Positions 1,073-48,706 of a DNA stretch of 64,000 bases are shown piece by piece. The translations under genes were made by a program, and so were the position numbers. Source of the DNA: Clostridia bacterium (GTDB lineage Bacteria > Bacillota > Clostridia > Christensenellales > Aristaeellaceae); assembly GCA_017429265.1 (NCBI GenBank), contig JAFRPG010000100.1:14645-78644 (forward strand), written 5' to 3'. Below the pieces are notes generated by a model. That model saw only the letters and a program-made list of their open reading frames with translations. It ran no database searches and was not told the DNA's origin. Positions within the stretch are counted from its first letter, which is position 1, and every line of letters starts with the position of its first letter.

Positions 1073-1834
1073 ATGCGCAGACTGTCCCTGCTCCTCGTTC
1101 TCTCGCTGCTCCTGTCCTCCGCCGCCCTGGCCGACCCGCTCGTGCAGCTGCCCGATCTCACCGGCGCGGCATACTGGCCCGAGGGCACGGATGAGACCAC
1201 GGCGGCGTACGTCTACCGCTACACCTATCCCCAGGTGGAGGGCGACGGACAGACGGAGACCACGATCAACGTCTACTACAGCAACGAGGTCGACTACGCC
1301 CTCGCCTTCGACGTCCCGATCCGCGGCGAGGAGCTCCGGATCCCGGGCCTGCAGTCCTCCACCGACATCCGCTACCAAATCATGGTCAACGACGACATGT
1401 TCTTCACCGTCCTCGTCGTCGCTGACTCCGTGATGGACGGCGAGCGCCATGTCAAAGTCAGCGCGCAGAACTTCAGCCGCGACACCGAGAAGCCCGGCAA
1501 CGTGATGACCCTCGCCTACCTCCTCGACATCCTTGAGGACAGCGAGGAAAACGACTGGCTGCGCAGCCGCCAGACCAACCGGGCCAGCACGGTCGCGCGC
1601 GACCTGGTCTGGGCGCAGATCGAGGAGCGGCGCGAAGAGGGCGAAGTCTTCCCGGAGGACTGGGACCGCGAGATGCTCGACTATGAGTTCTTCCCGGAGG
1701 AGGACTTCTACTGCGACGTGGAGGAAGGCCTCCTGGTCTTCTTCTTCCAGCCCTACCTGAACGGACCGGACATGGAGCCTGACAGCTACTATACCTTTCC
1801 TCTCGATATCGAGGACATTCTCGACGAGATGTGA
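1073..1834 (+). CDS. secreted acidic protein, function unknown
   Basis: Signal peptide MRRLSLLLVLSLLLSSAALA. Weak resemblance to DUF4163/DUF3298-type proteins (YRYTYPQV...INVYY). Very acidic C-terminus. Confidence 0.6.
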   Translation: MRRLSLLLVLSLLLSSAALADPLVQLPDLTGAAYWPEGTDETTAAYVYRYTYPQVEGDGQTETTINVYYSNEVDYALAFDVPIRGEELRIPGLQSSTDIRYQIMVNDDMFFTVLVVADSVMDGERHVKVSAQNFSRDTEKPGNVMTLAYLLDILEDSEENDWLRSRQTNRASTVARDLVWAQIEERREEGEVFPEDWDREMLDYEFFPEEDFYCDVEEGLLVFFFQPYLNGPDMEPDSYYTFPLDIEDILDEM

Positions 1835-11899: not shown

Positions 11900-12463
11900 T
11901 CAGTCCGTCTGCTCGTAGATCCGGGGCGCCAGGACGCCGATATCGGGTAAATTACGGTACTTTCCGTCATAGTCGAGGCCGTACCCGACCACGAAGGCGT
12001 CCGGGATCTGGAAGCAGGCGTAGTCCGGTTTCAGGTCCACCCGGCGGCGGGCCGGCTTGTCGAGGAGCGTCGCGATACGGATCGATTTCGCGCCCTTGTA
12101 CTTCAGGTGGCCCAGGAGGAACTTCAGCGTCATGCCGGAGTCGATGATGTCCTCCACGATCAGGATGTCCTTGCCGGTGATATCGTGGTCGAGGTCCTTG
12201 CGGATCTGCACAACGCCGGTGGATTCGGTCGCGCTGCCGTAGGAGGATACCGCCATGAACTCGATGGACACGGGCAGATCCAGTTCGCGCATCAGGTCGC
12301 TGAAGAACACGATGGCGCCGTTGAGGATGCCCAGAAGCACGGGCTCCTTGCCGGCGTAGTCCCTGGTGATCTGTTCGCCCAGTGCCTTCACGGACGCGGC
12401 GATCTCTTCCTTGGTGACCAGGATCCTGTCCAGATCCTTGTAGATGACGGCGTTATGATCCAT
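11900..12463 (-). CDS. hpt: hypoxanthine phosphoribosyltransferase
   Basis: PRPP-binding ILIVEDIIDSGMTL. Conserved tilS-hpt-ftsH order. Confidence 0.9.
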   Translation of the reverse strand: MDHNAVIYKDLDRILVTKEEIAASVKALGEQITRDYAGKEPVLLGILNGAIVFFSDLMRELDLPVSIEFMAVSSYGSATESTGVVQIRKDLDHDITGKDILIVEDIIDSGMTLKFLLGHLKYKGAKSIRIATLLDKPARRRVDLKPDYACFQIPDAFVVGYGLDYDGKYRNLPDIGVLAPRIYEQTD

Positions 12464-44456: not shown

Positions 44457-44485
44457 TTGACAAAAATCCACTGATCTGATAATAT
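44457..44485 (+). promoter_or_regulatory. sigma-70-type promoter for tRNA-Val
   Basis: TTGACA (44457-44462), 17-nt spacer, TAATAT (44480-44485). Confidence 0.6.
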
Positions 44486-44513: not shown

Positions 44514-44535
44514 GGTCGCATGGCTCAGTTGGTAG
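44514..44535 (+). other. orphan 5' fragment of tRNA-Val (22 nt)
   Basis: GGTCGCATGGCTCAGTTGGTAG is identical to 44567-44588. It is followed by 31 unrelated nt and then the full tRNA. Confidence 0.8.
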
Positions 44536-44566
44536 CGCCTACTGCTACCTTTGAGTAAATGCACAA

Positions 44567-44639
44567 GGTCGCATGGCTCAGTTGGTAGAGCACATCGTTC
44601 ACATCGATGGGGTCACAGGTTCGAGTCCTGTTGCGACCA
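44567..44639 (+). tRNA. trnV: tRNA-Val (anticodon CAC)
   Basis: Hand-folded: acceptor GGTCGCA/TGCGACC, D arm GCTC-AGTTGGTA-GAGC, anticodon stem CATCG/CGATG with loop TTCACAT, T arm ACAGG-TTCGAGT-CCTGT, discriminator A. Confidence 0.85.
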
Positions 44640-44648
44640 CACACCCAC

Positions 44649-44687
44649 GAAGAAGCTTGAGAAATCAGGCTTCTTTCTTTTTTGCCT
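44649..44687 (+). terminator. terminator after the intact tRNA-Val (element side)
   Basis: GAAGAAGC-loop-GCTTCTT then TTTCTTTTTT. Confidence 0.6.
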
Positions 44688-44739
44688 CGCCTCCCTGGGG
44701 GGTACAAAAATCGGCTGTTACAGGGTACATTCTCTTGGC

Positions 44740-44876
44740 GTGAACAGAATAGGCGGACACTCCGTACACGCCCATATAGGTGTGAACGGATTGGTCGCTG
44801 AATGTGAACGGGATGCCGGAATTGATGTGAACGAATTGCTGGCTTTGGTGTGCACAGATTGCCTTTTGATGTGAAC
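44740..44876 (+). repeat. six GTGAAC-core direct repeats at ~22-bp spacing
   Basis: GTGAAC at 44740, 44782, 44804, 44827 and 44871; GTGCAC at 44850. Extended consensus tGTGAACnnAtTG. Confidence 0.75.
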
Positions 44877-44939
44877 CGTAGCCCGGATACACAGAAAAAG
44901 AACAGGGCCGAAGCCCTGAAAGAAAACTTCTCGACCAGG

Positions 44940-46514
44940 TTACTCCTGGCCGAGGAATTGCTGCATGGAAATTCTGAACTGAATGTGGAGCTTATATCCA
45001 GTGGTTACCTCCACGCGCTGAATGAGTCTGGTTACAATCATATGCTTGGTACTGATGTCAGCCGCCTCATAACAATCGGCCCATGAGACGAGCTCATCGA
45101 TCTGCGCCTTCGTTTTCTTAGCATTCGATGCTTCTTCCTCCGTGCGAGCTTTGGCGTCAACCATGGCTTGGCGGGCGGTTTCAAGCTTTGCCCGGTGCTT
45201 CAACAGCATGGAATTGACGACATTCAAGTCCAGCGCACTTTCACCGGTCAGCGCTTTGACCGCTTCCTCCTCCAGCGCCGTTACCTGCTTCTGGGCATTT
45301 TCAAAATCTCTCTCGGCCTGTTTATATGCGATCCGATAGGTCTCTTCATTCCTGGCACTCGCCATTTTCACCATCTTCTCACGAGGTACCGACTTTACCT
45401 TGGCAAAGAATTCCCGTACTTGATCCTCAACTGCTTGATTAATGACGTTTGCCTTGTAAGCGGATTGCCCGTCGCATGACTTCCTGGATGAAATTTTCCG
45501 GTAGCAGCGGTAAACCTCATAATCATATGCTGCAATTGATCCATCAGCAAGTGCTCTTTCGTCATGGTGGTGGTTGAAAGCGAGCCGGCAGCCGCAGTGA
45601 GCGCAGTAGAGAATGCCGGAGAGCAGGCTCCTAGAATCCGTACGTAGTGGTGTCTCCAGATCGTTGCCAGCCGTTTTTGTGCATCGGCCCTTTACTGTTT
45701 GCTGACACCTGATGTACATGTCTTCATCAATGATCTTGAGATGTTCAAACGGTTCCGATTTCGCTCCCTGCATATGGTATATTCCGATGTAGATGGGATT
45801 ATCGATGATTGCCCGGATTGAAGTACCCCGCCAAAGCGTTGTTCCCCGCTTCGTCTTGATTCCCTTATCATTCAGGTACTGGGCGACACGGTTTGTACCA
45901 TATCCACGGTTCGTCAGCAGATCAAAGATTTCTCTGACAATTGTTGCTTCCTCTTCGTCAACAACCAGATCTTTGACAGGCTGGTTTTTCTTGTTTGTGC
46001 GCCCATGATACTCCAGTTTGTAGCCAAATGGAAGCTTTCCTCCGCGGTACTGACCCTCTTGCACCATCTGCATATGTTTCGTTTTTACGCGGATGGAGGT
46101 CTTTTCACTTTCTCCGGACGCCTGCCAAAAACGGATGTAGTTCAGCAGTTTGTCCACATGATTGTCAAAACGCTGCTCCCCTTCCCTTGCGCTCCAGACC
46201 TCAATTCCCTGCTGAGCAAACCACTGGACTACAAAGGGCGTTTCATCGTCACGTCTGCCGAGGCGGTCGAACATGAAGACCAGCAGCACATCGAACTGAT
46301 GCGTGATAGCCCTCTTTTTGATCTCGACGATGGCATCCCGAGCATTGGCGCTGACCTTGTAACCAGAAACGCCCTTCTCGGAAATCTCATCTACAATCTC
46401 CCAATCCGGATGTGTCGCTGCATACTCGCGACAGGCCAGTTTTTGCATCGGGATATCATCGTGATCCACCTGGCCAACAGTGGAAACACGGTAAAGGCAA
46501 ATCACCCGTTTCAT
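44940..46514 (-). CDS. large serine recombinase
   Basis: N-terminal resolvase domain (VICLYRVSTVGQ), recombinase domain, zinc ribbon (CAHCGCRL...YRCYRK), coiled coil. ATG 6 nt after GGAGGTG. Confidence 0.9.
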   Translation of the reverse strand: MKRVICLYRVSTVGQVDHDDIPMQKLACREYAATHPDWEIVDEISEKGVSGYKVSANARDAIVEIKKRAITHQFDVLLVFMFDRLGRRDDETPFVVQWFAQQGIEVWSAREGEQRFDNHVDKLLNYIRFWQASGESEKTSIRVKTKHMQMVQEGQYRGGKLPFGYKLEYHGRTNKKNQPVKDLVVDEEEATIVREIFDLLTNRGYGTNRVAQYLNDKGIKTKRGTTLWRGTSIRAIIDNPIYIGIYHMQGAKSEPFEHLKIIDEDMYIRCQQTVKGRCTKTAGNDLETPLRTDSRSLLSGILYCAHCGCRLAFNHHHDERALADGSIAAYDYEVYRCYRKISSRKSCDGQSAYKANVINQAVEDQVREFFAKVKSVPREKMVKMASARNEETYRIAYKQAERDFENAQKQVTALEEEAVKALTGESALDLNVVNSMLLKHRAKLETARQAMVDAKARTEEEASNAKKTKAQIDELVSWADCYEAADISTKHMIVTRLIQRVEVTTGYKLHIQFRISMQQFLGQE

Positions 46515-46519
46515 TCTGA

Positions 46520-46843
46520 TCACCTCCGACTGAAGTTGGCGCTGCTAAGCATTGTCAGTACATCTGCCAAGGCCGTCTCATCTGGTTCGTCTGCAAAAGA
46601 AAGCGTGATTTCGCAGAAAGGCTGACCAGCGAAAAGCCTAGTGTTTACAGACTTTCTACGCTTGATAGCAGTAGTACTATTGGCTCTGTTGCCGGTACTA
46701 ATCAAGTTATCATTCGGAGATGATTCTGTTATGTTTTCTGGTTGTGTGGACACTGTCAGATCTGCGCTCTGTAGCCCGTTCCGTCGGCAGAATGCCTTCA
46801 CCGACCCAAGCGGAACCTTAAGCTCGCTGGCGATCGTGGCATC
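46520..46843 (-). pseudogene. remnant ORF with an HTH-like segment, N-terminally truncated by an in-frame TAA
   Basis: The frame reads *DATIASELKVPLGSVKAFCRRNGLQS... with no plausible start before the HTH. The track start (46801) is a GTG inside the HTH. Confidence 0.35.
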
Positions 46844-46967
46844 TTAGTCACCCGGACATAGATTCATTCTTAAGCGTATCCCGTTCCGTTCTTATCACGA
46901 GGCCTGTATGGTTTGCTCCTGCGATGACCGCTTCCGTCCGCACCATCATCGGACATCTTGATTTTAC

Positions 46968-47054
46968 TACTAACGTTATTAGTTGTCAATATGAAATACT
47001 TGCGTTATTAGTTCATGAGTGTTATCATCACTATGGAGTGTTATCATTACAATG
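46968..47054 (+). promoter_or_regulatory. two sets of direct repeats upstream of the RHH gene
   Basis: TACT[AA/TG]CGTTATTAGTT at 46968-46984 and 46997-47013. Tandem 19-mers GAGTGTTATCATCACTATG / GAGTGTTATCATTACAATG at 47017-47054 abut the RBS. Confidence 0.6.
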
Positions 47055-47065
47055 GAGGTGAGCCA

Positions 47066-47278
47066 ATGCCAAAGAAACAGACAGAATGGTCAAGAGCATA
47101 TAACGAAAAAACCTATGACCGTCTCGCAATAACAATTCCCAAGGGCCGTAAGGCAGATGTGGAGACTTTAGCCTCCAAGGCCGGGGAATCCGTCAACGGT
47201 CTTATAAACAGCCTATTGCGTGATGCAATGGGCAAAACCGAAGAAGAATGGAAGAGTAAACCAGTGCGTGATGAATGA
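47066..47278 (+). CDS. ribbon-helix-helix (CopG/Arc-like) DNA-binding protein
   Basis: YDRLAITIPKGRKADVETLASKAGESVNGLINSLLRDAMG. ATG after GGAGGTG. Confidence 0.7.
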   Translation: MPKKQTEWSRAYNEKTYDRLAITIPKGRKADVETLASKAGESVNGLINSLLRDAMGKTEEEWKSKPVRDE

Positions 47279-47639
47279 ATGGGTACGCCGATATGAACAG
47301 CCTTCCGCATGGTGATGCCATTCAATACCATTCATGACGCCTACGGCAGGCCGGCGGACAGCTGTATAACCGCGCGATGGCGAATGCCTTGCGTTCGATG
47401 CAAACAGTTTCGTGAATGAAGACGCGCGTGATATGCACCACATCATCCGTGATATGAACAAGAATGCAGCCAACCTATGCGCATAAAAAAACGCCCAATG
47501 GGCTGGGTGCAAACGGGTGCAGATTTGGGTGCAATTCTGAAACATGTGTGCACGTCTCAACAAGTCAAAATACGTGATGTGGCTTGAATCGTATGCTTGC
47601 ACACGTCTCTGCATGACCAGGCACGTGACATCCTACAAA

Positions 47640-47660
47640 TTCGAGTCCTGTTGCGACCAC
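47640..47660. repeat. orphan 3' end of tRNA-Val (att repeat)
   Basis: Identical to 44620-44640. Confidence 0.9.
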
Positions 47661-47663
47661 TCC

Positions 47664-47698
47664 GGGAGCCCTTGTAAATCAAGGGCTCCCGTTTTTTT
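47664..47698 (+). terminator. native tRNA-Val terminator
   Basis: GGGAGCCCTT-gtaaatc-AAGGGCTCCC followed by TTTTTTT. Confidence 0.7.
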
Positions 47699-47893
47699 AT
47701 CCCAAAATACGACAACCGTACGACAATTATACGACAACGCCGTTTTCCATGGACTCATAAAACCGCTGCATACGGGCTGAACTTGCCTTCATCAGCTGGA
47801 ATCCCCGTCCTGTTGGATGAACGGGAACGTTCCGGCCTTTGTCGATAGATCCGATCCGCATTCCCTGAAGGCTGCGAATACGACCCTGGACGA

Positions 47894-48706
47894 TCACTGC
47901 GGCTCTTCGCGATACGTCAGGCGCTCCAGGTCCTCACCCGCGGCGGAGAGGGACCGGCGGAGGGCGTACTCACGGGGAGACACGCCCTCCTGCGCGCGGA
48001 ACACCCTCGAGAAATACCGCTCGTCCACGTAGCCGCACAGTTCCGCCACCCGAGCGACGGACAGGTTCATGGCCTGCTTCTGTTCAAGAAGATGCCTGGC
48101 GTAGTCCATGCGCAGATGGGTGAGGAACTCCGTCGGCGTAAGGCCTGTCTCGTCCTTGAACAGCTTTCGGATGTAATTCTCCGTGTATGGTGTGGAGCGC
48201 AGGATCTGCGGCAGATCCAGATTCGGATCCGCAAAGTTTTCGGTGATCCGCTCCTTGATCTGCTCCACCAGCGGCTGCGGAGTCCGCACGGCGGCCCTGA
48301 CGGCGAGCAGCTGCATGAGATCCCGGAAGAGGGCGAGGACGATCCCTTTCTCCTCCGGCTTTTTCCGGTAGTAGAGGTTGAAGACCGCCTTGATCAGGCC
48401 GGTAAGAGTGCCGGCGCTGTCGTCCTGCAGGAGCAGTGGGCGGCTTTCGTCGAAGCGCAAACCTTCCGCGGAGAGGAATTCATCCGTGTAGAAGAAGTAA
48501 TCACGGAAGCCCTCCGCGGAAGTTTTGAAGTGGGTGACGTGCGGCGGGATGCAGGTCACCGTCCCCACGGTAAAAGGCACTTCCCGGCCGCCCATGGTCA
48601 GGGTGCCGCTGCCCTCGGTATTCACGCAGAATTCCCACAGCTCATGGGAGTGGGGAACGCATTCCGTCATCGTCTGTCTGCAGTAACCCAGTGCGCAAAG
48701 TTTCAT
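47894..48706 (-). CDS. AraC-family transcriptional regulator (cupin + HTH)
   Basis: C-terminal AraC HTH (YFSRVFRAQEGVSPREY). Divergent from a sugar-phosphate operon. Confidence 0.85.
   Translation of the reverse strand: MKLCALGYCRQTMTECVPHSHELWEFCVNTEGSGTLTMGGREVPFTVGTVTCIPPHVTHFKTSAEGFRDYFFYTDEFLSAEGLRFDESRPLLLQDDSAGTLTGLIKAVFNLYYRKKPEEKGIVLALFRDLMQLLAVRAAVRTPQPLVEQIKERITENFADPNLDLPQILRSTPYTENYIRKLFKDETGLTPTEFLTHLRMDYARHLLEQKQAMNLSVARVAELCGYVDERYFSRVFRAQEGVSPREYALRRSLSAAGEDLERLTYREEPQ

Follow-up and report, generated by a model that had tools for sequence, protein, structure and literature searches.

A tRNA-Val(CAC) locus of a Clostridia bacterium as a probable fusion of a serine-integrase prophage stump with the remnant of a tyrosine-integrase island

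The 3-kb segment that begins at tRNA-Val(CAC) in the window (the whole stretch of 64,000 nucleotides that was analysed) is quite probably the stump of a large prophage with a large serine recombinase (LSR), joined, through a deletion, to the end piece of a tyrosine-integrase island that is unrelated to it. Comparison with related loci also makes a broader reading fairly likely, in which widespread serine-integrase prophages of rumen and gut Clostridia disrupt and replace their target: they would cut tRNA-Val(CAC) in the D-loop, place their own tRNA behind the host promoter, regenerate attB and leave a 53-nt fossil attL for each round of lysogeny and loss, the fossils serving as a tally of infections and the host possibly coming to depend on a phage gene.

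The tRNA-Val(CAC) locus

As an earlier note on this DNA had described, the 3' 21 nt of tRNA-Val(CAC), TTCGAGTCCTGTTGCGACCAC, are repeated exactly about 3 kb downstream (44620-44640 and 47640-47660), and each copy has its own terminator, a hairpin with a T-run (44649-44676 and 47663-47691). These are the only two copies in the whole 3.02-Mb assembly, and 100 shuffles gave 0 matches. The truncated HTH open reading frame, the RHH gene and several short repeat arrays placed between the copies are all there, as is the serine recombinase, which has 527 residues here and not the 524 given before. Two features had been missed. The 5'-terminal 22 nt of tRNA-Val, 44567-44588, are duplicated without mismatch 31 nt upstream of the tRNA (chance expectation 0), and a relic of the C-terminal part of a tyrosine integrase directly follows the second terminator. 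The features of the locus are as follows.

44457..44485, + strand: TTGACA-17-TAATAT with a TG extension, a promoter-like site that begins the locus and has the tRNA 5' stub about 29 nt downstream
44514..44535, + strand: host tRNA-Val 5' stub, GGTCGCATGGCTCAGTTGGTAG, the putative B arm of attL, with the presumed AG crossover at 44534-44535
44536..44566, + strand: putative P' arm and a spacer belonging to the LSR element, CGCCTACTGCTACCTTTGAG...; its counterpart by homology in the closest relatives is TACCTACTGGTACCTTTG...
44567..44640, + strand: complete tRNA-Val(CAC), probable cargo of the LSR prophage
44649..44685, + strand: element-type terminator after the phage tRNA, GAAGAAGCTTGAGAAATCAGGCTTCTTT and T-run
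44740..44876, + strand: GTGAAC/GTGCAC repeats in an array that separates the terminator from the LSR stop codon, with a phase of about 22-23 nt
44940..46523, - strand: full-length LSR, 527 aa, with Pfam and PHROG matches
46520..46846, - strand: small HTH gene, 5'-truncated, with the first ~22 codons missing; homology ends at an in-frame stop
46847..46967, no strand: interval containing the presumed deletion junction between the LSR stump and the tyrosine-integrase island piece
46968..47054, + strand: two short direct-repeat pairs, TACTAACGTTATTAGTT twice and GAGTGTTATCAT twice, just upstream of the RHH gene
47066..47278, + strand: Arc/CopG-like RHH gene (phrog_13890, 2.9e-16; phrog_582, 2e-4)
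47279..47639, + strand: putative distal (P-arm) end of the tyrosine-island remnant, ending ...CCTACAAA directly before the repeat
47640..47660, + strand: 3'-end sequence of tRNA-Val in a 21-nt copy whose first base is that of the T-loop, TTCGAG
47663..47697, + strand: terminator CGGGAGCCCTTG-loop-CAAGGGCTCCCG with T7, the putative P'-side terminator of an older tyrosine-integrase element
47727..47897, - strand: relic of a tyrosine integrase gene, ...KASSARMQRFYESMENGVVV*, with the last ~22 residues recognisable

The recombinase matches PF00239 (Resolvase; 5.8e-19, residues 8-158), PF07508 (Recombinase; 3.7e-19, residues 190-280), PF13408 (Zn_ribbon_recom; 3.1e-10, residues 300-370) and the integrase family phrog_95 (5.6e-87). 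Its N-terminal resolvase catalytic domain carries the serine nucleophile motif, with YRVSTVGQ conserved in relatives, and is followed by the Recombinase and zinc-ribbon domains in the order of an LSR. The closest solved structure is that of SPbeta SprA/YokA (E 5e-8, the match covering residues 130-342), and the protein is 78% identical from end to end to the LSR of a relative, L002; its true start is likely to be the methionine of MKRV at 46514. A small HTH gene precedes the LSR in every case. The homologues of this gene encode 127-134 aa, have weak HTH_38/Sigma70_r4_2 matches and lie downstream of holin and endolysin genes; the window copy is without the N-terminus found in them. This small gene is a candidate for a recombination directionality factor.

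The terminator at 44649-44685 is 92-100% identical in L002 and two other relatives (L025 and L039), and its family is also found 3' of tRNAs with other acceptor types. Promoters similar to that at 44457-44485 stand upstream of the stubs in the relatives L003 and L077, and the window site is probably that of the host tRNA-Val gene, from which transcription would now pass through the stub into the phage-borne tRNA. The core of the GTGAAC array is the reverse complement of GTTCAC, the anticodon-loop segment of the tRNA; the array is 85% complementary to 44589-44608 and is antisense to part of the B' half-site. Arrays of this type, with at least 3 repeats, are present in the window and at 12 related loci and at neither of the 2 tRNA-Val loci that have no adjoining LSR element.

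Attachment sites of the recombinase family

At least 22 other genomes show the LSR clade linked to tRNA-Val(CAC) in the arrangement seen here, which supports the earlier proposal that the serine recombinase is tied to targeting of this tRNA. Among relatives at 60-80% identity, the tRNA gene converges on the LSR stop at 19 loci of other species and in 5 viral contigs, and at one further locus it lies 4.3 kb from a truncated LSR. All four attachment sites of the family were located in silico: a viral contig supplied attP, one genome supplied attL and attR at a distance of 57.9 kb, and an intact attB was also found. Their homology breaks at one common AG in the D-loop. Around the crossover, AG alone is identical between attP and attB, and attB has no visible palindrome. 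These break-points suggest that the LSR crosses over at the D-loop AG of tRNA-Val(CAC), GGCTCAGTTGGT-AG-AGCACATCG, and the sites, as read in silico, have the short attP and attB, the 2-bp crossover and the hybrid attL and attR without long homology of a serine integrase.

A complete prophage of the family was found in genome G075 (contig C36). A full tRNA and the LSR lie at its left end, and a 53-nt copy (AGAGCAC...CCA) follows 57.9 kb downstream in the same orientation. The terminator and gene after this copy are homologous to those after the intact tRNA-Val in L143 (82% over 307 nt, from tRNA position 21), and no PF00589 tyrosine recombinase was found on the contig. The viral contig L097 shares 2975 nt with the right end of the G075 prophage at 99.97% identity, and the match stops exactly at the AG; past this point come the P' arm, a 157-nt spacer, a full tRNA-Val, a terminator and the LSR, so that in the attP form, as assembled, the whole tRNA-Val gene is phage-borne. 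It should be noted that L097 could represent a junction between tandem prophages instead of a free phage genome, with an identical junction either way. In two pairs aligned by eye, the P' arms approximate the reverse complement of the P arms, e.g. CCTACCAGCTG versus CCTACCACCTG. No P-side homology was found among the attR flanks, the P ends being mosaic. Related prophage records span about 47-58 kb, and a syntenic prophage of about 47 kb is present in relatives. No far-end repeats of 12 nt or more were found in the IMG/VR prophage records G046, G047 and G049, which end short of attR: G047 and G049 end just past a gene whose product reads like a DNA polymerase, and G046 ends 7.5 kb past the last block that it has in common with G047.

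Upstream of the full tRNA-Val gene, 22 of 30 loci have between one and five units of a 22-nt stub with a P' arm, often with a 53-nt period, and at 7 loci the acceptor type of the stub is unlike that of the full tRNA. This arrangement is consistent with a mechanism in which LSR integration splits the host tRNA-Val, leaving a 22-nt 5' stub behind the host promoter and placing a 3' stub of 53 nt at the opposite end of the prophage. In compensation, the phage would bring a complete tRNA-Val(CAC) of its own, situated about 30-160 nt inside attL and represented here by 44567-44640, with a separate terminator, the phased GTGAAC array and the convergent LSR gene after it. This tRNA would probably be driven by the host promoter through the stub. 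The phage tRNA would then constitute a fresh attB, so that later phages could insert again and old attL stubs would pile up, to as many as five at one locus.

In the window, attL would correspondingly comprise 44514-44566 (the 22-nt stub and the P' arm), and the left boundary of the element would be corrected from 44640 to 44534/44535. The sequence from 44536 to about 46846 may be read as the integrase-end stump of such a prophage. The prophage genes kept in the window are the tRNA, the LSR and the truncated HTH gene; the structural, lysis and replication modules that lie between attL and attR in an intact prophage were not found there. In the whole assembly the 30 nt with which the 53-nt stub begins (AGAGCAC...GGGGTCAC) were detected only once, and the expected attR is, by this in silico search, absent from both window and assembly. 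The element had already been described as decayed, and this is supported. Because it has no attR, the stump should be unable to excise, and an intact LSR reading frame is slightly unexpected in an immobile stump.

That intact frame, 78% identical over its full length to functional-looking relatives, could instead indicate domestication, the LSR and the phage tRNA being kept as a host module that, for example, blocks or captures related phages at the regenerated attB; the phage tRNA regenerates attB and is the only copy of tRNA-Val(CAC) with its sequence. Such a role is distinctly unlikely, since the upstream HTH partner gene is broken and the 12 further genomes of the genus lack the LSR, save for a 43% relative in one, which gives no sign of long retention. 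For the stump as preferred here, persistence may instead reflect its tRNA gene, 44567-44640 being the sole tRNA-Val(CAC) of its sequence found in the assembly.

The sites bear equally on the reading given in the earlier note, of one small decayed element whose LSR acts at the tRNA 3' end, with 44620-44640 and 47640-47660 as the attL and attR cores. An intact LSR does lie between the two copies, at locus L024 an LSR adjoins 19 nt copied from the tRNA end and flanked on the left by non-tRNA sequence, and the homology between L025 and L002 starts at the CCA end. However, the four attachment sites of the family all fall at the D-loop AG, the G075 prophage is bounded by 22-nt and 53-nt stubs and not by 21-nt copies, no second copy of the last 20 nt was found at the other LSR loci in the flanks fetched (2.3-16 kb past the tRNA), and the stub and arm at 44514-44566 are left unexplained; the LSR of L025 is truncated and that locus is itself decayed. 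The single-small-element reading is thus very improbable and is largely refuted in silico, together with its proposal that the LSR rebuilds the tRNA 3' end by means of the 21-bp repeat: the family appears to cross over at the D-loop AG and to carry a whole tRNA-Val.

Other placements of the crossover were considered and rejected. A crossover at the 3' end was suggested by the arm common to L025 and L002 from CCA on, and by one terminator family following three acceptor types, but is contradicted by the 5' stubs and attP, and L025 was set aside as evidence for it, being a decayed copy with a truncated LSR. A T-loop crossover, suggested by the window, L024 and L121, is ruled out by the D-loop attachment sites, the G075 stubs and the window attL stub. 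The motif CTGCATGACC to the left of the repeat in the window and L024 differs in spacing between them and is absent from other loci, and was attributed to chance.

The RHH gene, the 21-nt copy and the integrase relic

Homology to LSR elements ends near 46846, and homology to RHH islands begins near 47042. At least 247 homologues of the RHH protein were found, those at 73-76% identity lying in islands that adjoin a tRNA or tmRNA gene and also carry Phage_integrase, XRE, primase and DUF3987 genes. All six contexts examined, and that in G070, are tyrosine-integrase islands at tRNA-Thr, tRNA-Ala, tRNA-Trp or tmRNA; the integrase of the G070 island is 42% identical. No RHH homologue is present in about 45 LSR loci, and in 60 relatives the RHH gene of G070 was the only homologue found for any part of 46850-47645. 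Repeats resembling those at 46968-47054, ACTAACGC, occur upstream of the RHH homologue in L132, and the window repeats are probably operators for the RHH protein. For 47279-47639 no homologue was found anywhere, LSR loci included, and its assignment to the tyrosine island is by position only.

The second 21-nt copy runs from the exact start of the T-loop to the tRNA's 3' end, a boundary that is the same in L151 (tRNA-Trp), in L145 (tmRNA) and in the window's own tRNA-Trp island, and the junction before it, A-rich sequence followed by TTCGA, matches the T-loop-type attR of these loci. On this basis 47640-47660 is read as the attR core of a tyrosine-island remnant or, equivalently, as an attP-like junction of two tandem tyrosine islands. 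The region of the terminator at 47663-47697 is 94% identical over 150 nt in G016, of the same genus, and in G009, G011, G012, G014 and G016 a hairpin of this type stands before the tyrosine integrase gene. The integrase relic is 77% identical to the tail of the G016 copy, its homologues being full-length in G014 (402 aa) and partial in G016 and G012. Among genomes of the same genus, a block starting at the T-loop, with a terminator and then a convergent tyrosine integrase, occurs in G012 and G014 (tRNA-Val) and in G009 and G011 (another tRNA), and in none of them is the block preceded by the rest of the tRNA, for which tandem accretion is the proposed explanation. The segment 46850-47897 is a remnant, and not a working member, of the T-loop class: it has regulatory cargo in common with such islands in the form of the RHH gene, but the integrase that would belong to the RHH piece is absent, and only the tail of about 22 residues from an older element is present.

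The 21-nt copy could alternatively be what is left of the 53-nt attR stub of the LSR prophage, with the RHH gene as variable cargo, a random internal deletion having taken the body and P arm of the prophage together with 32 nt from the start of the stub. This would be simpler, requiring one element and one deletion; family prophages are mosaic at the P end, and in G016 a 53-55-nt stub stands directly before the same terminator and a tyrosine-integrase relic, so that the ancestral locus could have been tRNA-Val, terminator and relic. It is nevertheless unlikely. Such a deletion would have ended precisely at the first base of the T-loop, where the T-loop-type tyrosine-island repeats and blocks of other loci also begin; RHH homologues are found in tyrosine-integrase islands and in none of the LSR loci or of three prophage records of 47-55 kb; and a second break is required, because the RHH-side DNA abuts the truncated HTH gene. 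A history with two elements is therefore favored by the T-loop start of the 21-nt copy, by the contexts in which RHH homologues occur and by the missing homology to LSR elements.

In the preferred layered history, the LSR stump would be the first layer. The second, from about 46850 to 47660, would be the distal part of a satellite-like tyrosine-integrase island, with the RHH gene, a P arm and the T-loop-type 21-nt core, and the third, 47661-47897, would be what is left of an even older tyrosine element, its terminator and the tail of its integrase. A single deletion with its left end in about codon 22 of the HTH gene could have removed the bulk of the prophage, its P arm and the 53-nt stub, and also the integrase-proximal part of the tyrosine island. 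The order of these events, the promoter read-through and the occurrence of only one deletion are what we infer from the arrangement of the layers. With respect to the earlier note, its description of the region as an integration hotspot holds. It had also allowed that the 21-bp repeat might come from a tyrosine-integrase element with the serine recombinase acting elsewhere; the first part appears to be correct and the second does not, the recombinase apparently acting on the same tRNA at another position.

Known systems and significance

Like the serine-integrase prophages phiC31, Bxb1, A118/LI and SPbeta (SprA), the present family combines Resolvase, Recombinase and zinc-ribbon domains with short att arms, a probable 2-bp non-palindromic crossover (AG) and an integrase gene at one end of the prophage, beside attL. 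Those phages insert in protein-coding genes or intergenic DNA, and the target is disrupted or reversibly split, whereas the present family appears to target a tRNA D-loop and to bring a complete replacement gene placed for expression from the host promoter. Williams reportedly distinguished, in 2002, anticodon-loop, T-loop and 3'-end sublocations for integration in tRNA genes. The family resembles the classical tyrosine-integrase phages and islands in targeting a tRNA gene and keeping its function, and the 21-nt repeat, RHH piece and integrase relic of the window fit the T-loop class of those elements. However, the classical elements duplicate only the 3' segment from the crossover on and leave no 5' stub, whereas members of the LSR family leave stubs on both sides, a 5' one of 22 nt upstream and a 3' one of 53 nt downstream, and bring the gene in full. 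SCCmec, inserted by the LSR-family recombinase CcrAB at the 3' end of rlmH, also occupies a housekeeping gene while keeping its function and accretes in tandem. The likeness lies in the conserved gene kept functional and the successive accretion at a regenerated site; SCCmec differs in that its target is protein-coding and only the last few codons are matched (a repeat of about 15 bp), with no full spare copy.

The tycheposons of Prochlorococcus, of which 910 of 937 have a tyrosine recombinase and the rest an LSR (bioRxiv 10.1101/2020.12.28.424599), are likewise integrative elements at tRNA genes with LSRs in the minority. As described in the passages retrieved from that source, they differ in host and are cargo- or PICI-like elements instead of 50-kb prophages, and for the LSR tycheposons those passages mention neither a D-loop crossover nor a replacement tRNA. 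A literature search yielded no description of an LSR prophage with a D-loop crossover and a replacement tRNA.

Replacement of the whole gene, as opposed to duplication of its 3' end, would be a third way of living in a tRNA gene. It would account for tandem tRNA 5' stubs, which annotators might dismiss, and would make fossil stubs a countable scar of past prophage visits. For the window itself, the boundaries are corrected, and the 3-kb segment would be a chimera of two unrelated elements. Serine integrases are valued for genome engineering because short sites suffice. If the sites deduced in silico are right, attB is a stretch of about 40-50 bp in a conserved tRNA gene across many gut and rumen Clostridia and would therefore offer a ready landing pad in organisms difficult to modify genetically, and the arrangement found in nature could serve as a template for insertion without loss of the target gene. 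The locus also suggests a route to host lock-in, in which a prophage remnant now encodes the only copy of a tRNA.

The tRNA-Val(CAC) repeat and the linked recombinase clade

A tRNA-Val(CAC) gene was identified with ARAGORN at 44567-44640 of the window, and its 3'-terminal 21 nt recur as an exact second copy at 47640-47660, each copy being followed by a hairpin and T-run terminator. Shuffles of the window gave no such 21-nt match, and the sequence occurs only twice across the whole 3.02-Mb assembly. Sequence searches bore out the observation in the earlier note of this repeat, its terminators, and genes for a large serine recombinase (LSR), a small HTH protein, and a ribbon-helix-helix (RHH) protein between the copies. 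The accompanying interpretation, a single serine-recombinase element at the tRNA 3' end, stands in that the LSR clade is linked to tRNA-Val, but the crossover is now placed at an AG in the D-loop and the 21-nt repeat appears to belong with a tyrosine-integrase island.

Features of the tRNA-Val(CAC) region of the window
44514-44566: putative attL, with the AG at 44534-44535
44514-44535: perfect duplicate of the first 22 nt of the tRNA, just upstream of the tRNA gene (overlooked by the earlier note)
44740-44876: array of five GTGAAC repeats and one GTGCAC variant in 22-23-nt phase, between the phage tRNA terminator and the LSR stop
Between the 21-nt copies: LSR of 527 aa with Resolvase, Recombinase, and Zn_ribbon_recom domains (phrog_95 integrase, 5.6e-87)
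Between the 21-nt copies: small HTH ORF, interrupted by an in-frame stop
Between the 21-nt copies: Arc/RHH-like gene
Just past the second terminator: tyrosine-integrase tail (likewise overlooked)

A scan for LSR relatives, with one genome per species, returned 79 loci. The arrangement of the window, with tRNA-Val(CAC) on the opposite strand and beyond the LSR stop, recurs in 19 of these (LSR identity 60-79%) at distances of a few hundred bases up to a few kb, and at one further locus the tRNA lies 4.3 kb from a truncated LSR; IMG/VR supplied 15 additional loci, five of them with the same tRNA-LSR geometry. Domain content and the in-silico att logic place the recombinase among the large serine integrases, with predicted activity. 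It is the integrase of a large temperate phage, because ~47 kb of synteny is shared among three viral records and because the closest relatives have, beside the LSR, a conserved HTH gene (127-134 aa), a holin gene, and an endolysin-like gene with peptidoglycan-binding and SH3 domains. The LSR was not found in 11 of 12 other genomes of the window's genus, and the remaining one has a 43% relative.

The window's two tRNA-Val copies both lack an encoded CCA (…GACCAC-ACA at 44636-44645 and …GACCAC-TCC at 47656-47665), and the same holds in the same-genus genome G016. CCA is encoded in 18 of the 19 LSR-adjacent tRNAs compared, the exception being L055, a locus 4.3 kb from a truncated LSR; the phage tRNA copy in the window appears to have lost it.

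Predicted attachment sites of the recombinase family

The 21-nt repeat, at first taken at face value as the LSR att site, was rejected in that role on account of relatives that have no second tRNA-end copy, the contig G075:C36 being decisive. The last 20 nt of the tRNA were not found a second time in any relative within the flanks retrieved (2.3-16 kb beyond the tRNA), or in three whole prophage records. Partial tRNA copies fall into two classes, one of ~53-56 nt starting at (GGT)AGAGCAC and the other of ~19-21 nt starting at TTCGAG. The earlier note had proposed a search of relatives for larger intact versions of the element, and a complete prophage was found on G075:C36, an 84-kb contig that has the LSR and a full tRNA-Val at its left end and a same-orientation 53-nt copy (AGAGCAC...CCA) 57.9 kb downstream. 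Past this copy are a terminator and a gene with homology to those located 3' of the uninterrupted tRNA-Val in the related locus L143, with 82% identity over 307 nt from tRNA position 21 onward. No tyrosine recombinase was found on this contig or on the 40-kb viral contig G052.

The viral contig L097 shares 2975 nt with the right end of the G075 prophage at 99.97% identity, which ends exactly at AG; past the AG are the arm found after stubs, a 157-nt spacer, a complete tRNA-Val, a terminator, and the LSR. Judged from this order, L097 represents the unintegrated arrangement, with a putative attP around the AG of gtactaacttgcggactttaccaccggccc-AG-aacccactggtcaagttatcaaactgccgg, while the attB around the AG of the tRNA-Val D-loop is GGCTCAGTTGGT-AG-AGCACATCG.

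Left arm, core, and right arm of the four predicted att sites
attP: …ggactttaccaccggccc, AG, aacccactggtcaag…
attR: …ggactttaccaccggccc, AG, agcaccgtgttcac…
attL: …catggctcagttggt, AG, aacaccctggtcaag…
attB: …catggctcagttggt, AG, agcacatcgttcac…

The P' and P arms approximate each other's reverse complement, the relation expected of half-sites for a serine integrase, and the AG core is non-palindromic, as directional crossover requires. The att arms were classed as alpha, beta, and an L036 type that breaks after AGAGCAC. A second arm class (ATGTAC…TATGGT-AG and AG-GACATACTG…GTACAT) is present in loci with LSRs 43-56% identical to that of the window; there the 53-nt copy and the LSR are on the same strand (in L102, at 3.4 kb beyond the LSR stop), and AG is again the crossover.

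L036 has, at ~1460-1706 (+), two upstream tRNA-Val 5' stubs that diverge only after GGTAGAGCAC, a pattern suggestive of a third LSR clade (43% identity) whose crossover point in this tRNA is shifted by ~6-8 nt in the 3' direction. In L140 (3327-3416; ~58630 of G075:C36), some 300 nt past the prophage attR, a small ORF is followed by another copy of the tRNA-Val 3' end, degenerate and with a terminator of the element type; this copy is probably the fossil of an older downstream-side insertion. In L081/L120 (contig C8 of G016), a 1.3-kb insert, with a single secreted-protein-like ORF, separates tRNA-Val from a 53-55-nt tRNA stub downstream. The left flank of that stub (AATGTACATCCCCCACTTTGAC) is of the second (beta) LSR P-arm type, and no 5' stub remains upstream of the tRNA; a different LSR phage left this remnant at the locus.

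The proposed prophage stump in the window and the probable origin of the 21-nt repeat

The P' arm in the window, CGCCTACTGCTACC, differs at 3 positions from the TACCTACTGGTACC of the closest relatives. The tRNA sequence at 44567-44640, which is single copy in the assembly, is that of the phage, and the element terminator after it is 92-100% identical in three related loci (L002, L025, and L039). Arrays of at least three GTGAAC-type repeats are present in 12 related loci, those with the array at the same position as in the window including L001-L003, L005-L007, L012, L015, L033, L093, and L095; the array is absent from both tRNA-Val loci that have no adjacent LSR element (L055 and L081). The repeats, a conserved trait of the family, read as the reverse complement of that part of the B' half-site which covers the anticodon loop, and either the LSR or the small HTH protein may use them as accessory binding sites. 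The LSR of the window is intact (78% identity to that of L002 over its full length), but homology in the HTH gene begins only at about codon 22, upstream of which no match to any LSR element was found. The expected attR, a P arm joined to the 53-nt stub, is nowhere in the genome, and the stump is predicted to be incapable of excision.

The 21-nt repeat starts at the first base of the T-loop, and several lines of sequence evidence appear to tie it to a tyrosine-integrase island. RHH homologues are numerous, and all six contexts opened are 2-16-kb islands with a tyrosine integrase, an XRE repressor in five of the six, and a primase and DUF3987 helicase in most, located at tRNA-Thr, tRNA-Ala, tRNA-Trp, or tmRNA; in G070, an RHH homologue is on a 10-kb contig with a 42%-identical integrase. 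No RHH homologue was found in ~45 LSR loci or in three long prophage records. Direct repeats that start exactly at TTCGA, with an A-rich flank before them, occur in two of the RHH islands and in the tRNA-Trp island of the window itself, and the junction in the window (...CCTACAAA|TTCGAG) has the same form. On the right side of the repeat, 94% identity to G016 extends over the terminator and ~100 nt, a region that in G016 precedes the C-terminal half of a tyrosine integrase; a full 402-aa tyrosine integrase lies behind a 21-nt tRNA-Val block in G014, and G012 has a tyrosine-integrase tail. The same integrase family, with a CCCTTGTAAATCAAGGG-type terminator, is found behind the T-loop block of another tRNA (TTCAAGTCCTGTTTCCCGCA) in L089 (G009:C30) and L083 (G011:C43). 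The relic in the window retains only ~22 recognizable residues.

It should be noted that the T-loop-start block is never preceded by the rest of the tRNA in five of five same-genus cases (G009, G011, G012, G014, and the window), and that in G016 it lies within a 53-55-nt stub. Tandem arrays or another cause may lie behind these isolated blocks. Where elements are arrayed in tandem, the crossover of each would be marked by the left edge of the displaced tRNA piece to its right, and by this rule the T-loop edge would place a tyrosine-type island to the left of 47640, where the RHH gene lies. In L151/L152 (G076, tRNA-Trp), a 2.3-kb mini-island has little beyond an RHH gene and a 277-aa tyrosine integrase, the former directly upstream and co-directional; the RHH protein may be a regulator or excisionase of that integrase family.

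A simpler alternative is that the 21-nt copy is the leftover of the phage's own 53-nt stub after a random deletion, and G016 demonstrates that a 53-55-nt stub can sit directly on the same terminator; however, this reading requires a base-level coincidence, as well as the presence of an RHH gene in phages of a family that has shown none. The most economical history involves two tyrosine elements and the LSR phage. The relic at 47661-47897 would stem from an old tyrosine element; another tyrosine island, the one with the RHH gene, would next have inserted in the same tRNA; the LSR phage would then have entered at the D-loop; and a single deletion, starting at about codon 22 in the HTH gene and ending before the RHH gene, would have removed everything between. 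The window is read as holding a dead stump fused to the debris of two tyrosine elements, an arrangement that is ordinary in itself.

5' stubs, probable tRNA replacement, and comparison with known systems

In 22 of 30 loci, the full tRNA-Val is preceded by 1-5 upstream units, each comprising the first 22 nt of the tRNA (…GGCTCAGTTGGTAG) and a conserved non-tRNA arm, often with a period of exactly 53 nt. The array of L073, at 11970-12182 (-) and upstream of the phage-borne tRNA, comprises five units with this period; L011 and L014 show four apiece, and L005, L012, and L033 also have arrays. Because the arrays combine differing acceptor types and both att-arm classes, they look like a record of successive integrations. 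The acceptor stems of stub and full tRNA differ in seven loci, among them the following.

Acceptor stems of stub and full tRNA
L007, L095, and L096: stub GGTCTGTT, tRNA GGTCGCAT
L018: stub GGTCTGTT, tRNA GGTGGCAT
L016: stub GGTCGCAT, tRNA GGTCTGTT

Because of these differences, the stub is assigned to the host and the full tRNA gene is taken to have arrived with the element. At one LSR locus, L003 (~12012-12070, -), the host promoter abuts the full tRNA with no stub, whereas in the related L093 a comparable upstream flank leads into a stub, which suggests that stub and P' arm can be lost via recombination between the 22-nt repeats.

Integration at the AG would sever the tRNA-Val gene where the D-loop meets the 3' strand of the D-stem. 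The host promoter would keep the 5' stub behind it, and the complete phage tRNA-Val, ~30-160 nt past the stub, would probably be transcribed from that promoter; promoter-like sites are present upstream of stubs. The native terminator and 53-nt 3' stub would be moved to the far prophage end. Because the phage tRNA would contain a new attB, another phage could enter there, which would account for the junctions in L010 and L103 with the order P arm, 53-nt copy, terminator, and LSR. A whole tRNA with an outer stub scar could arise through prophage loss by recombination between the 53-nt repeats or through excision across mismatched att pairs in a double lysogen, and either route would produce the observed arrays.

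The LSR family differs from textbook cases in its target and in the manner in which the target is preserved. Where a tyrosine-integrase element occupies a tRNA gene, only the 3' portion is duplicated, and the usual sites of serine integrases are protein-coding genes. The small serine recombinase of the Ralstonia phage phiRSM acts at tRNA-Ser; this system and certain Prochlorococcus elements are precedents for serine recombinases near tRNA genes. Of 937 of the latter, 27 carry an LSR (bioRxiv 10.1101/2020.12.28.424599), and a large provirus survey found that tyrosine integrases prefer RNA loci and have longer att cores than serine integrases (PMC13626063). A full-text literature search, of incomplete coverage, returned no description of a D-loop crossover combined with a whole replacement tRNA and tandem fossil attL stubs. 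The integration design of the LSR family, for which we found no published description, has good in-silico support from all four att sites, and the family could serve as a landing pad in gut Clostridia.
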